Sequence record: MN850609.1
Length of the DNA: 64,000 bases
DNA from: Escherichia phage dhaeg
Reading direction: 5' to 3' (one strand)
Both the position numbers and the translations under genes were made by a program. The notes beneath the pieces are model-generated. The model searched no databases. It was not told where the DNA came from and saw nothing but the letters and a program-made list of their open reading frames with translations. This document shows, in pieces, positions 42,191 through 48,484 of this stretch (its first letter is position 1; each line of letters starts with the position of its first letter).

Positions 42191-42219
42191 GTTTACATCT
42201 CCGGTAGGCATGATACTAT
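42191..42219 (+). promoter_or_regulatory. early promoter cassette for denV
   Basis: GTTTACA-16-TACTAT plus gacctatcaactacaggagatta leader; near-identical copy at 44321. Confidence 0.6.
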
Positions 42220-42245: not shown

Positions 42246-42662
42246 ATGACTCGTATCAACCTTACCTTAGTATCTGAATTGGCTGACCAACACTTAATGG
42301 CTGAATATCGTGAATTGCCACGTGTTTTCGGTGCAGTTCGAAAGCATGTTGCTAACGGTAAACGTGTTCGTGATTTTAAAATCAGCCCTACTTTTATCCT
42401 TGGTACAGGCCATGTCACATTCTTTTATGATAAGCTTGAATTTTTACGTAAGCGTCAAATCGAGCTTATAGCCGAATGTTTAAAACGTGGCTTTAATATC
42501 AAGGATACTACGGTCCAGGACATTAGTGATATTCCTCAGGAATTCCGTGGTGATTATGTTCTTCACGAAGCTTCTATCGCTATTTCACAAGCCCGTTTGG
42601 ATGAAAAAATTGCACAACGTCCTACCTGGTACAAACATTATGGTAAGGCGATTTATGCATAA
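42246..42662 (+). CDS. denV: endonuclease V (pyrimidine dimer DNA glycosylase)
   Basis: 138 aa; almost identical to recalled T4 DenV ([50 protein letters not shown]...). Confidence 0.97.
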
Positions 42663-42800
42663 GGGAGCAACCTGGACCTCACAATTCTGTGAGGGACTCC
42701 CGCCAACCTGTAATAAGGTCGAGCCCAAGTGCGGTAATGGGTAAATGCAGAAAGGGACGAATTAATGTGCCAAGGAACGGCCCACAACTAAGAGACAACT

Positions 42801-43621: not shown

Positions 43622-43832
43622 ATTGACAATTGAAGGCTCTGATGAAGCTCTGAAGAGATTTGTTGAATGGTTTAATGGGCCGGGTGAACAAGACTTTCTG
43701 GAAGTCTGGGACGGCGGCCAATGGAATGGTAAAGAAATTGTTTACCCAACTACTTATATCTCCGTGCAAGGTTGGACTGAAGGCCTTCGTTTGGTGGAAT
43801 ATGATATCGCAACTGGCGAGGAAGTGAAATGA
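43614..43832 (+). CDS. hypothetical protein
   Basis: 72 aa; overlapping start. Confidence 0.45.
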   Translation: MSKLTIEGSDEALKRFVEWFNGPGEQDFLEVWDGGQWNGKEIVYPTTYISVQGWTEGLRLVEYDIATGEEVK

Positions 43833-44107
43833 TTGAAGACATCAAAGGTTACAAGCCACATACCGACGATAAAATAGGTAAAGTGAATGCCATTAAAGAT
43901 GCTGAAGTTCGATTGGGCTTAATCTTTAAAGCATTAGAAGAAGAATATGTTGAAGCCTTTACATGCTCCGGTGTTGATAAAATGAGTGATGAAGAATTCG
44001 ACCTTACTCATGAACGCCTCGCCCAGATTCGTACGGCAATCGAACGCTTGAAAGAAGCATCCATGTGGGCCTGTCGTTCCGTTTTCCAACCGGAAGAGAA
44101 ATACTAA
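43829..44107 (+). CDS. hypothetical protein
   Basis: 92 aa; ATGA overlap. Confidence 0.45.
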   Translation: MIEDIKGYKPHTDDKIGKVNAIKDAEVRLGLIFKALEEEYVEAFTCSGVDKMSDEEFDLTHERLAQIRTAIERLKEASMWACRSVFQPEEKY

Positions 44108-44320: not shown

Positions 44321-44349
44321 GTTTACATCTCCTGTAGACGTGGTACTAT
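44321..44349 (+). promoter_or_regulatory. early promoter cassette for regB (direct repeat of the denV cassette)
   Basis: GTTTACA-16-TACTAT; about 60-bp near-identical repeat of 42185-42245. Confidence 0.6.
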
Positions 44350-44377: not shown

Positions 44378-44836
44378 ATGTCAGAAATTAATTCAGAAGT
44401 ATTCATCCGCCGCAACAAATTACGTCGTCAGTTCGAAACCGAATTTCGTGAACTTAACGCGTCCATCAAAAAAGCCGCCATTAAGAGCGGTGTCCCAGCT
44501 TTCTTTATTAAGTACTCTAATCACTTGTTGGACCGTGCTATCCAACGTGAAATTGACGAAAAATATGTTTTCTCTTTGTTCAAGAAGCTCCATAATCATG
44601 TTAAAGAAATCCATGAATTTTTAATCCAGGAGCCTCTTCCTGACATAGAATCTGAAATTGTCCCAGGTAAAGTGTATCGTCCACTGCGTCTCGAGATTAC
44701 CGATAAAACCTTATGGTTGGGTATGACCGTAGATCGTAAACATCCTGATAAAGGATATTCATTAAAATGTCGTATGGCATTTGTTAATTCTAAACGTTTA
44801 GAAGGTAAAACCAGCACGAAAGTAATCTATCTTTAA
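44378..44836 (+). CDS. regB: site-specific RNA endonuclease RegB
   Basis: 152 aa; EVFIRRNKLRR.FE.EFR ... HLLDRAIQREIDE.YVF ... RLEITD..LWLG matches recalled T4 RegB. Confidence 0.9.
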   Translation: MSEINSEVFIRRNKLRRQFETEFRELNASIKKAAIKSGVPAFFIKYSNHLLDRAIQREIDEKYVFSLFKKLHNHVKEIHEFLIQEPLPDIESEIVPGKVYRPLRLEITDKTLWLGMTVDRKHPDKGYSLKCRMAFVNSKRLEGKTSTKVIYL

Positions 44837-44848
44837 TAATGAGGTCTC

Positions 44849-45388
44849 ATGAAAAAAGTATTAGCCACTTTACTATTGACAGTTAGTATGTCTGCCTATA
44901 GCGTAGAGCCTACTTTCAGTAATGAACAACTCGATAATTTACATTATGCGTATGCTTTCGGTGAACAATACCAAAAGTCGGGAAAGTTCAAAGAAAACCC
45001 TAATCAAAAAGGATTAGGATATATAATGGCCGGATTATTATGGCAGGAATCATCTGCTGGAATTAATCAAGGTTTAAATAAAGATAAGCACCATGCTTAT
45101 GGCATGTTCCAAAATTACTTGCCTACGTTAAGAAGTCGTGTTCAACAGGTAGGTTGGAAGATGTCAGACAAAGAAATAATTCGCATGGTCCAAAAACGAC
45201 AGAACAGTGCCTCTTGGGCCTACATTGAGCTGTCTTATTGGATTGATGTTCACAAAGGTGACCTGAGAAAAGCGATTGCTTCTTATAATGCGGGCTGGAA
45301 TGTCAAAGCAGGCAGTAAATATGCTTCCGAAGTTCTAGAAAAGGCCAATTACCTAAAATCTAAAAAGATGTTTGAGGCGGTATATTAA
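44849..45388 (+). CDS. secreted lytic transglycosylase-like (SLT domain) protein
   Basis: 179 aa; N-terminal signal peptide; SLT-like motifs LLWQESSAG, GMFQ, SYNAG. Confidence 0.6.
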   Translation: MKKVLATLLLTVSMSAYSVEPTFSNEQLDNLHYAYAFGEQYQKSGKFKENPNQKGLGYIMAGLLWQESSAGINQGLNKDKHHAYGMFQNYLPTLRSRVQQVGWKMSDKEIIRMVQKRQNSASWAYIELSYWIDVHKGDLRKAIASYNAGWNVKAGSKYASEVLEKANYLKSKKMFEAVY

Positions 45389-45745
45389 ATGATTAAACAG
45401 ATGACTATAGCGCTTATGTTGATTGCTCCGGGAGTATTAGCATCACAGGTTGATGATACAAATAATTCAATTGTCGAGTATGCCACCCGTACAGCAAAAG
45501 ATTATTGTCATCCGAGTAATACTGAATGTGTTATTGAATTCAGTTCAAAAATAACAGCTGCTTTTAAAGATGGACAGAACGACGTCGAGCATCGCCGAAT
45601 GAAAGAGAAAACTCTTTCTAAAAGATACGAGCAACGTCTAAACGTTACTGAATGTGTTCCGTCTGATAAAAAGTACAAAGAAATGTGCGCGTCTATGGTA
45701 GACAGACTCGTTGACTCTTACAACCGAGGGCTAAACTCTAAATGA
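45389..45745 (+). CDS. small secreted protein (signal peptide, Cys-containing)
   Basis: 118 aa; N-terminal MIKQMTIALMLIAPGVLAS. Confidence 0.5.
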   Translation: MIKQMTIALMLIAPGVLASQVDDTNNSIVEYATRTAKDYCHPSNTECVIEFSSKITAAFKDGQNDVEHRRMKEKTLSKRYEQRLNVTECVPSDKKYKEMCASMVDRLVDSYNRGLNSK

Positions 45746-46221
45746 TTATTGATTATATTAAGGGCGATATCGTCGCCCTGTTTCTTCAAGGTAATATTAT
45801 TGCACACGGGTGCAACTGTTTTCATACTATGGGTTCAGGTGTGGCTGGTCAATTAGCAAAGGCCTATCCTAAAATATTAGAAATTGATAAGACCACTACT
45901 GAATATGGTTCTCGTGATAAATTGGGTGATATGTCTATTGTTTTTAAACATAAGCCTAATGGATTTGCAATGTGCTATAATTTATACACCCAATACGAAC
46001 CAGGCCCTAATCTTGATTACGGTGCTTTAGTAAACTGTATGATAGAATTAAATCTACAAGCAAATGACCTTTTGTTTAAACCAAGAATTTATATTCCTCG
46101 CATTGGTTGTGGTATTGCTGGTGGTGATTGGGACAAGGTTTCTAAATTAATCGACATGTTTACTCCTGATATTGATTTAATAGTGGTGGATTATGAAAGC
46201 ACATTACCCACATCCGTTTGA
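45742..46221 (+). CDS. macro domain protein (ADP-ribose binding/hydrolase fold)
   Basis: 159 aa; KGDI..., AHGCNC...MGSGVAGQL and IPRIGCGIAGG align to the canonical macro-domain Gly-rich motifs. Confidence 0.7.
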   Translation: MIIDYIKGDIVALFLQGNIIAHGCNCFHTMGSGVAGQLAKAYPKILEIDKTTTEYGSRDKLGDMSIVFKHKPNGFAMCYNLYTQYEPGPNLDYGALVNCMIELNLQANDLLFKPRIYIPRIGCGIAGGDWDKVSKLIDMFTPDIDLIVVDYESTLPTSV

Positions 46222-46405
46222 CCCTAAAAATAAAGCTGAAATTATTCGGCGCTGGACTGAAACTCGAGTAACCAAATGCCCTATAAAAAGTCAGCATAAC
46301 ACCGATAAATGGTATATTGGTGAATATGTTGAATATACTTTTATAGATAAAAATAAACGTAAACAGCATGTAGAAGAATATTGCTTAAAGGTACAATGGT
46401 TATGA
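46193..46405 (+). CDS. hypothetical protein (overlaps 3' end of macro-domain gene)
   Basis: 70 aa; ATG with GGTGGA RBS; 29-nt out-of-frame overlap. Confidence 0.35.
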   Translation: MKAHYPHPFDPKNKAEIIRRWTETRVTKCPIKSQHNTDKWYIGEYVEYTFIDKNKRKQHVEEYCLKVQWL

Positions 46406-46608
46406 GCCAAGCCCGAATTCTTAAAACAGCCAAATGTGAAAAATGCGAATGGCCGGTAATCGCAGCTTTATGCAACGATGAAATGAATTGCGAATATGAT
46501 TACTGGTGGTACTGTTCTAATAAAGGATGTTCTAATCATAAAGGTGAAGGTTTTCATTCTGGTTATTGCGAACATCCTAAATTTGTGCGATATGGTGAAC
46601 CTAAATGA
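46402..46608 (+). CDS. Cys-rich small protein (putative zinc-binding)
   Basis: Start at ATGA overlap 46402 (ORF-track 46381 is TTG); CEKCEW...C...C...C...GYCEHP. Confidence 0.45.
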   Translation: MSQARILKTAKCEKCEWPVIAALCNDEMNCEYDYWWYCSNKGCSNHKGEGFHSGYCEHPKFVRYGEPK

Positions 46609-46790
46609 GTTTGAGTAAAGAACAGAAAGACAAATTGTTTGAGCTTATCCATGAGCTTTTGGATGAACATGCCGAAGCAAACGCTTTTTACGATGAATAT
46701 GGCCCGATAGATGCCGACCATCAGGAAGAATTTGCTAATCGATTTGATGAGAAAGAAAACGAATTAATTGCTTATGTGAATAGTCTTTAA
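46605..46790 (+). CDS. hypothetical acidic protein
   Basis: 61 aa; ATGA overlap. Confidence 0.45.
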   Translation: MSLSKEQKDKLFELIHELLDEHAEANAFYDEYGPIDADHQEEFANRFDEKENELIAYVNSL

Positions 46791-46799
46791 GAAGGTAAT

Positions 46800-47372
46800 A
46801 TGGCTCAACTTTATTTTCACTATGCGGCAATGAACTCAGGTAAGACAGCTTCATTGCTAACGGCGGCTCATAACTACAAAGAACGTGGTATGGGCGTGCT
46901 CCTTTTAAAGCCTGCGATAGACAATAGAGAATCAAGCCATACCATTTCGTCTCGTATAGGGATTAGTCAAGAGGCTAATGCAGTGACTCCGGATATGGAC
47001 CTATACGAGTTCTATCGTTGGGCTGAATCTCAAAAAGATATCCACTGTGTGTTTGTGGATGAAGCACAGTTCTTAGAACCTGCACAGATAAAACAACTGG
47101 CAAAGATAGTAGACAATTATAATGTTCCAGTTATGTGTTATGGACTAAGAACTGATTTTCAGGGTAAACTGTTTCCTGGTTCTGCCGAATTACTCGCTAC
47201 GGCAGATAAACTCGTTGAGTACAAAGGTGTGTGCCATTGTGGCCGTAAAGCTACTATGACTGCTAGGGTCCAAGATGGTATCGCAATTAAGGACGGAGCC
47301 CAAGTTTCTATAGGTGGCAACGATTCTTACGTGTCATTGTGCAGGAAGCACTGGATAGAAATAACGAGTTGA
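46800..47372 (+). CDS. tk: thymidine kinase
   Basis: 190 aa; ...YAAMN.GK.ASLL.AAHNYKERGM.VL.LKPAID.R ... IHCVFVDEAQFL ... VCHCG.KA.MTAR ... SLCRKHW matches recalled T4 Tk. Confidence 0.95.
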   Translation: MAQLYFHYAAMNSGKTASLLTAAHNYKERGMGVLLLKPAIDNRESSHTISSRIGISQEANAVTPDMDLYEFYRWAESQKDIHCVFVDEAQFLEPAQIKQLAKIVDNYNVPVMCYGLRTDFQGKLFPGSAELLATADKLVEYKGVCHCGRKATMTARVQDGIAIKDGAQVSIGGNDSYVSLCRKHWIEITS

Positions 47373-47751: not shown

Positions 47752-48045
47752 ATGGGTATTTTCCGTACAGTGGCTTGTATCCTTATGATTGGATGTTTAA
47801 GCCCGACATCTTCACTAGCAAACAAATCCGACCCTAAATTGATGGATGCCTTTGCTAGTAGTGCGATGCCAGTTTATGCGCAAATGAGTAAACCTAGTGT
47901 AAAGGCTTCCGAAGACTACTGGGCTTATGTAACTGCTTCTTGGAAAATTTCAAATTGCAATACAATAGAGTCTTGCTCGATTGAAGGTCGGGCTATCGGA
48001 GAACGATACGCTAAACTAATGAAGGTAGATGATGAAATTCAATGA
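47752..48045 (+). CDS. rI: lysis inhibition regulator (antiholin) RI
   Basis: 97 aa as in T4 RI; N-terminal signal-anchor; conserved pattern DP..D.F.S...Y....SV..SE...V....K..C....C..G....YA..M recalled from T4 RI; position near tk. Confidence 0.75.
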   Translation: MGIFRTVACILMIGCLSPTSSLANKSDPKLMDAFASSAMPVYAQMSKPSVKASEDYWAYVTASWKISNCNTIESCSIEGRAIGERYAKLMKVDDEIQ

Positions 48046-48417: not shown

Positions 48418-48446
48418 AAAGGTCTCACTTCGGTGGGACCTTTTTT
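48418..48446 (+). terminator. rho-independent terminator
   Basis: GGUCUCAC-UUCG-GUGGGACC followed by UUUUUU. Confidence 0.65.
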
Positions 48447-48455
48447 CGTTTTAGT

Positions 48456-48484
48456 GTTTACATCCTCTAGGAACGTGATACTAT
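48456..48484 (+). promoter_or_regulatory. early promoter cassette
   Basis: GTTTACA-16-TACTAT plus gacctatcaactaatgaggag leader; -35-proximal ATCCTC can pair with the GAGGAG RBS. Confidence 0.6.

Follow-up and report, generated by a model that had tools for sequence, protein, structure and literature searches.

A macrodomain gene between regB and tk of Escherichia phage dhaeg corresponds to T4 tk.4 (adfM)

The stretch of DNA analyzed here, 64,000 nucleotides (nt) of Escherichia phage dhaeg (MN850609.1; hereafter the window), contains an open reading frame (ORF) of 159 amino acids (aa) between regB and tk, which is assigned by similarity and position as the Dhakavirus orthologue of T4 tk.4, also named adfM for anti-DarT factor Macrodomain. 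Its product is likely an ADP-ribosylglycohydrolase, which would be made early in infection and would reverse the thymidine modification of the toxin DarT2 by Gln-type chemistry. The gene itself is ordinary for a T4-like phage; it received its annotation with that of the T4 genome, its macro/A1pp domain has been on record from 2006, and an anti-DarTG2 role was reported for it in 2025. An invariant glutamine in place of the catalytic lysine and a mosaic internal module are the modest refinements added by this analysis.

45742..46221, plus strand, including the stop codon: tk.4/adfM orthologue, a stand-alone macrodomain protein of 159 aa with an ATG start (ORF listing).

The translated ORF contains G8-D9-I10, H22GCNC...M30GSGVAGQL38 and I118PRIGCGIAGG128, exactly the motifs quoted by an earlier note on this DNA, and the neighbor matches agree with the placement between regB and tk given there. 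The same note had known of no macrodomain at this position in T4 and had proposed lineage-specific accessory cargo, and both statements have to be corrected. BLAST aligned the window protein with T4 Tk.4 (NP_049723) at 57% identity over 155 aa without gaps (E=5e-69), and tblastn of T4 Tk.4 against the window gave a single match at 45742-46206. The gene order of the T4 reference is regB, vs.1, vs, tk.4, tk.3, tk.2, tk.1, and tk, and the slot in the window is identical. Full-length similarity, the lack of a second such gene in the window, and the position between vs and tk.3 place the ORF in one orthologous group with T4 tk.4. The T4 record lists the product as “phosphatase” with the note “contains A1pp phosphatase motif”, and Nolan et al. 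2006 (PMC1524935) had already described A1pp matches for tk.4 orthologues.

In DNA searches, dhabil, JS98, and JS10 were found as nucleotide relatives of the window with 98.5, 96.3, and 95.5% identity, respectively, and the GenBank records of JS10 and JS98 name this gene tk.4. One locus (L007) is 99% identical to the window. In the fetched set of 79 related viral loci, 18-24 retain vs.1, vs, regB or tk beside tk.4, and tk.4 is core T-even equipment. Beyond the T-even phages, the gene context of the homologues is unrelated, and they span many phage groups with the hosts Pseudomonas, Vibrio, Bacillus, and Cellulophaga. The low identity of tk.4 to T4 arises because the window belongs to a Dhakavirus of the JS98/JS10 type, in which the whole regB-tk block is diverged. 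An allele unusually far from T4 was therefore rejected, with the entire block being 41-71% identical to T4.

The phenotype of the T4 orthologue was identified in the HIDEN-SEQ preprint, in which a T4 transposon library on a DarTG2-expressing host yielded tk.4 as the single significant gene (bioRxiv 10.1101/2025.11.20.689424). A clean tk.4 knockout sensitized T4 to DarTG2, and the gene, which is dispensable in T4 except on the DarTG2 host, was renamed adfM; the removal of ADP-ribose from DNA by T4 AdfM is a deduction of the preprint authors (bioRxiv 10.1101/2025.11.20.689424). T4 without adfA and adfN (gene 30.3) had still been resistant to DarTG2 in assays with sub-MIC chloramphenicol, and a further factor was predicted (PMC11825919), a gap that is filled by tk.4. 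Since T4 tk.4 is needed on a DarTG2 host, the likeliest function is the removal of DarT2 ADP-ribose from thymidines of phage DNA. This is in line with the suggestion of the earlier note that the protein reverses DNA ADP-ribosylation by host defence. We infer that the 57%-identical window allele would have the same activity and substrate range.

The macrodomain itself, likewise named by the earlier note, was recovered by profile and by structure. Pfam Macro (PF01661) matched the 159-aa protein with 33.7 bits (E=4e-8; gathering cutoff 22 bits) over 116 of 118 profile positions, and PHROG 335, labeled “phosphatase”, matched with E=7e-71. Homologues were detected by tblastn in 2,773 of 50,697 phage records, and 787 protein clusters were found at E<=1e-3, so that the ORF stands well above chance. 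The structure prediction proposed as a check gave a confident AlphaFold2 model from an alignment of 85 sequences, with a mean predicted local distance difference test (pLDDT) of 94.2, a predicted template modeling score (pTM) of 0.89, and disorder confined to the last four residues. The top 18 Foldseek matches in the Protein Data Bank (PDB) were known macrodomains, i.e., TARG1, Poa1p, Bt_1257, and DarG (E of 1e-9 to 1e-7), which places the modeled protein in the ALC1/TARG1-like macrodomain class. The profile score, the three-layer alpha/beta/alpha fold and the loop motifs all agree with macrodomain membership, and the protein has the loop residues N25, G31-S-G33, and G122-C-G124, which show little or no variation among its homologues. 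Three segments make up the active site.

45805..45846, plus strand: loop 1 or catalytic loop, H22-G-C-N25-C-F-H-T-M-G-S-G33-V-A35; H22 and N25 align with SCO6735 H24 and N27, and N25 with PhiKZ AdfM N23.
45979..45993, plus strand: N80-L-Y-T-Q84 motif; Q84 stands at the position of TARG1 K84, DarG K80, and the essential Gln85 of SCO6735.
46096..46131, plus strand: loop 2 or diphosphate-binding loop, P119-R-I-G122-C-G124-I-A-G-G-D-W130; G122 and G124 align with SCO6735 G126 and G128.

Invariant positions among 85 homologues were H22, G23, N25, C26, G33, A35, N80, Y82, Q84, P119, G122, G124, and W130. N80, Y82, and Q84 also showed no variation across all 78 complete viral homologues, an independent set in which none of these three positions had been used in fetching the loci. 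When the family profile was aligned with PDB sequences, Q84 fell on K84 of TARG1 and on the Gln of the Bt_1257 motif “NMIGQ”, while A126 fell on D125 of TARG1, and therefore neither the dyad of TARG1 nor the lysine of DarG is present. A PDB query with Bt_1257 provided the alignment with SCO6735, in which the motifs “ANMIGQHG” and “PRIGCGLAGG” are identical in both proteins, and an offset of 20 on the SCO6735 sequence restored every residue number of PMC9411070, with the Gln as Q85. Taken together, the two alignments equate H22, N25, Q84, G122, and G124 of the window protein with H24, N27, Q85, G126, and G128 of SCO6735, respectively. Loop 2 is the same as the PRIGCGLAGGxW of Bt_1257 and SCO6735 except for one conservative Ile/Leu change.

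SCO6735 and Bt_1257 were described as a subclass with Gln85 replacing the catalytic lysine (Hlousek-Kasun et al., PMC9411070), and the window protein shares this replacement through Q84. SCO6735 efficiently hydrolyses the ADP-ribosylated (ADPr) thymidine made by DarT; among its mutants, Q85A was dead, N27S and G128E were strongly impaired, and H24Y was inactive and misfolded (PMC9411070). The five aligned residues, whose SCO6735 counterparts each weaken or abolish ADPr-thymidine hydrolysis when changed, are all family-invariant, which supports a function of this kind for the window protein.

In the proposed mechanism, a stand-alone ALC1-like macrodomain would be produced early in infection, with transcription probably starting at the early promoter that precedes regB. 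The toxin DarT2 of the DarTG2 defence would put ADP-ribose on thymidines of single-stranded phage DNA, and Tk.4/AdfM as an ADP-ribosylglycohydrolase would take it off, by which replication of the phage genome would be restored. The chemistry would follow the SCO6735/Bt_1257 type, in that Q84, held by N25, may orient the distal ribose for water-mediated hydrolysis.

Several points weigh against this mechanism. The mobile loop that marks the SCO6735/Bt_1257 subclass, which follows the Gln and is about 5 residues longer than in DarG and TARG1, is present only in the short form YEPGPNLDY, 6 residues shorter than that of Bt_1257. K34 and K89, which position DNA in SCO6735 (PMC9411070), are not conserved, as the window protein has S32 and the shortened loop (G88) instead. 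The N-terminal half is about equally similar to Poa1p, an ADP-ribose-1''-phosphate (Appr-1''-p) phosphatase, as to the DNA-acting members. Residues ~43-79 differ strongly from those of T4, so that the target range could differ. Finally, the activity of the window allele is taken over from its homologues, and the evidence on T4 AdfM is genetic.

The early timing of tk.4 was derived from the transcription signals of the window.

44322..44349, plus strand: T4-type early-promoter-like site upstream of regB, with the consensus AGCAGTTTACATC...TG.TACTATAGACCTATCAACTA..GGAG...ATG.
30616, 30967, 33122, 42192, 44322, 48457, 51962, and 53363, plus strand: eight early-promoter-like sites.
48418..48443, plus strand: strong intrinsic-terminator-like hairpin of 11 bp with a T-run, followed by the next early-promoter-like site at 48457.

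Sites of the form TTTAC[AT]...TG.TA[CT].AT occurred eight times on the plus strand of the window and not once on the minus strand, and those at 42192, 44322, and 48457 have the long consensus in common. This T4-type extended consensus was the only informative promoter search; a generic sigma-70 promoter scan of the window showed no enrichment, with 17 sites found and 19 expected. The distance from the 44322 site down to tk.4 is 1.4 kb, and the first strong terminator-like hairpin appears at 48418. The 44322 site is probably the start of the transcription unit containing tk.4, and the hairpin at 48418-48443 is probably the end of the regB...tk...rI.-1 unit, by which tk.4 would be transcribed early. 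Production at this stage would be appropriate for an enzyme charged with clearing adducts from DNA under replication. In the three inspected sites, the leader TACTATAGACCTATCAACTA..GGAG places the RegB cleavage motif GGAG in the Shine-Dalgarno region, even before regB itself.

Within the gene, one segment stands out by its variability.

45868..45978, plus strand: hypervariable, recombinationally swapped module, residues ~43-79 (helix alpha2 and the beta3-beta4 hairpin), recognized by a drop in identity to sister loci.

Compared with three sister Dhakavirus loci (L011, L012, and L038), nucleotide identity is 46-53% only at 45862-45981 (~120 nt, residues ~41-80), while the remaining tk.4 and the flanking DNA are 83-98% identical. 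Amino acid identity by segment of tk.4 is 95, 42, and 85%. The tk.4 of these loci is just 77-78% identical to the window because ~120 nt were replaced, and their flanks are 97-100% identical, except for vs in L038 (69%, beside a local gap). Residues ~43-79 are the least conserved family-wide, and pairs with 87-91% identity in the core have modules of 30-35% identity. Replacement of the module is supported by these comparisons, whereas reuse of discrete module types was not borne out, as the only strong case of a module shared between different backbones (L027) was a frameshifted gene-call artefact.

The whole gene is also exchanged, between genera. The Tequatrovirus-like loci L023, L009, and L010 have 89-93% identity to the window in tk.4 but only 46-79% in regB, vs.1, vs, and tk. 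In L023, with tk.4 at 93% and the flanking genes at 46-73%, nucleotide identity is high only inside the gene borders, which mark the breakpoints. By this pattern, tk.4 is a recombination hotspot, with a gene-sized cassette and an internal module of ~120 nt. Recombination so unusually localized is expected of an arms-race gene and could be exploited to map specificity. A tentative and rather doubtful extension holds that T-even AdfM would descend from Gln-type “genome-protector” macrodomains (SCO6735/Bt_1257-like) and not from capture of DarG, and that the module and the Dhakavirus-Tequatrovirus gene exchange would mark a specificity determinant. This determinant would tune the enzyme or a DarT2-binding surface to DarT2 variants, or would evade host factors that recognize AdfM.

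The database labels imply a different activity, i.e., an Appr-1''-p phosphatase or an O-acetyl-ADP-ribose deacetylase acting on small ADP-ribose metabolites, with RNA-repair by-products, products of sirtuin-type defence, and ADP-ribose-derived immune signals as candidate substrates. While the resemblance of the N-terminal half to Poa1p fits such a role, the label “phosphatase” comes only from the SMART domain name A1pp, the one phenotype of the T4 orthologue is DarTG2-specific, and the window protein shares its loop 2 and Gln motif with SCO6735 and Bt_1257, which act on DNA. To our knowledge, T4 tRNA repair (Pnk and Rnl) also bypasses the 2'-phosphate/ADP-ribose cyclic phosphate (Appr>p) intermediate, which weighs in the same direction. 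We consider this role improbable as the main function, and activities on small metabolites could occur as side reactions alongside the DNA activity.

There is also a slim chance that the protein is mainly a stoichiometric inhibitor, which would bind DarT2 or ADP-ribosylated DNA instead of turning over its substrate. The dead variants SCO6735 Q85A, DarG K80A, and TARG1 K84A keep inhibiting DarT in vitro, with SCO6735 being the strongest (PMC9411070), and a surface module that can be swapped, as at residues ~43-79, would be compatible with an interface to another protein against which it evolves. However, the residues which SCO6735 needs for hydrolysis are all invariant in homologues down to ~35% identity, indicating selection for catalysis, and the window protein has no counterpart of the C-terminal DarT-binding domain of DarG. 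Stoichiometric inhibition of DarT2 is possible as a contribution added to the removal of ADP-ribose from DNA.

It is very unlikely that the protein reverses or tunes the phage's own Alt, ModA, and ModB ADP-ribosylation or RNAylation, or the RNA ADP-ribosylation by toxins such as CmdT, although T-even phages do encode three ADP-ribosyltransferases, since Alt/Mod enzymes modify arginine, a linkage that is cut by ARH/DraG-type enzymes and not by macrodomains, and the family reaches far beyond T-even phages with unrelated gene context there. ALC1-like macrodomains such as SCO6735 act on protein-ADPr as well (PMC9411070), but T4 tk.4 is dispensable save on a DarTG2 host, and the CmdTAC defence works against T-even phages despite their tk.4 (PMC11618068).

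The 5' end of tk.4 carries a further element.

45761..45779, plus strand: 8-bp hairpin AGGGCGAT-ATC-GTCGCCCT, then GTTTCTTC (a U-rich tract), in codons 7-13 of tk.4; terminator-like match.

This hairpin of about -13 kcal/mol is also found in T4, T2, and slur04. All eight pairs (8/8) are kept in every locus encoding KGDIVAL, with a compensatory change of AAG..CTG to AAA..TTG in L018. The stem uses the G/C-ending codons GGC, GTC, and GCC, and such codons are expected to be rare in AT-rich genomes such as those of T4-like phages. A few distant lineages build the same stem from different residues, and most distant homologues are without it. The hairpin could act in attenuation, in processing, or in translation.

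The remaining features of the region are as follows.

43829..44107, plus strand: vs.4 homologue, 67% identical to T4 Vs.4 (Pfam Acb2_Tad1_hairpin, 3.5e-16).
44378-44836: regB (Pfam REGB_T4, 2e-69).
44849-45388: vs.1 (neighbor ORF match).
45389-45745: Vs, valyl-tRNA synthetase modifier (neighbor ORF match).
46193-46405: tk.3/DUF7202 (neighbor ORF match).
46381-46608, plus strand: phage zinc-binding protein, PF23895, between tk.3 and tk.2.
46605-46790: tk.2/DUF7438 (neighbor ORF match).
46800-47372: tk, thymidine kinase (Pfam TK, 5.5e-57).
47752-48045: antiholin-family ORF in the rI slot (Pfam PF24205, 2e-25).

The ATG of tk.4 shares bases with the stop codon of vs (ATGA), and the last 29 nt of tk.4 overlap the start of tk.3 at 46193. 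The C-terminal tail STLPTSV of the allele group of the window, with a pLDDT of <50, runs into this overlap (46193-46221; residues 156-159). The zinc-binding ORF is a presence/absence polymorphism among tk.4 loci: L007, L008, and L023 carry it, and L009, L011, L012, and L038 lack it, with 0% aligned identity at 46402-46581. The vs.4 homologue is assigned as an Acb2-type cyclic-nucleotide sponge (anti-CBASS), and with its position 1.6 kb upstream of adfM, two counter-defence genes would lie in one early region. A sharp mosaic boundary was observed at ~42246-42700, where denV (42246-42659), with 97% protein identity to T4, adjoins the vs.8-to-rI.-1 block with 37-71%. No tblastn match in the window at E<=1e-3 was found for T4 vs.5, vs.6 (grcA-like), tk.1, rI, and rI.1. 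In practical terms, the value of the assignment is corrective, as the database name “phosphatase” for tk.4 homologues is a misnomer carried over from the A1pp domain name.

Among known systems, the DarG antitoxin macrodomain of DarTG2 (PDB 5M3I, 5M31, 7OMU) differs from the window protein by its Lys80 and its DarT-binding domain. On the DarG models, the window protein scored 28.3 bits with NCBIfam NF048014 (equivalog cutoff 250 bits) and 28.5 bits with PADLOC PDLC02990, while PhiKZ AdfM and T4 Tk.4 scored 133-138 and 30-36 bits, respectively. It covers just positions ~1-145 of the 329/338-position profiles, and the C-terminal DarT-binding half of DarG is missing from PhiKZ AdfM, T4 Tk.4, and the window protein alike. 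The neighboring genes are vs and tk.3 with no adjacent darT, and the catalytic Lys80 is replaced by Gln84. Tk.4 as a captured DarG macrodomain, an idea to which the preprint's comparison of structures could lead, was rejected by the scores (28 vs ~135 bits) and the Gln/Lys difference. A Lys/Asp mechanism as in TARG1 (OARD1) was also rejected, as its K84/D125 dyad is Q84/A126 in the window protein. The Pelagimonas homologue P0082 (41% identity) stands alone on the chromosome among unrelated neighbors, none of them DarT-like, and a bacterial homologue as half of a toxin-antitoxin pair was rejected on the context of this single case.

PhiKZ gp104 was independently named AdfM by Morgan et al. (Cell Rep 2026, PMC13309987), where it was shown biochemically, in vitro, to strip DarT2 ADP-ribose from thymidine and where its active-site residues are given as N23 and K78. 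Like the window protein, it is a phage-encoded stand-alone macrodomain, with N23 equal to N25, and it counters DarTG2; unlike it, PhiKZ AdfM is a late, Lys-type (K78) protein that is imported into the phage nucleus. Pairwise BLASTP of both proteins gave E=8e-4 over 33 residues. MAFFT placed K78 two columns from Q84, which at 22% identity is within alignment error, and the two positions are equated because the papers align K78 with DarG K80 and TARG1 K84, together with the TARG1 alignment presented here. PhiKZ gp104 (L004:12518-13006) and T4 Tk.4 (L001:4923-5390) are therefore a name collision, both being AdfM and non-orthologous. The two are distinct lineages of one fold class, DarG-like Lys-type and SCO6735-like Gln-type. 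One name and phenotype in macrodomain lineages with different catalytic residues suggests that the same counter-defence was recruited independently.

SCO6735 (PDB 5E3B) and Bt_1257 (2FG1/2AFC) are cellular Gln-type ALC1-like macrodomains active on the ADPr-thymidine of DarT, with ~28-30% identity to the phage-encoded window protein, while the similarity of yeast Poa1p lies largely in the N-terminal half. T4 Tk.4 differs from the window protein by a different module type at residues ~43-79 and by a C-terminus 4 residues shorter, with an overlap with tk.3 of just 4 nt. It is like the window protein in slot, orientation, length class (155 vs 159 aa), the H/N/Q/G-x-G residues, and the 5' hairpin.

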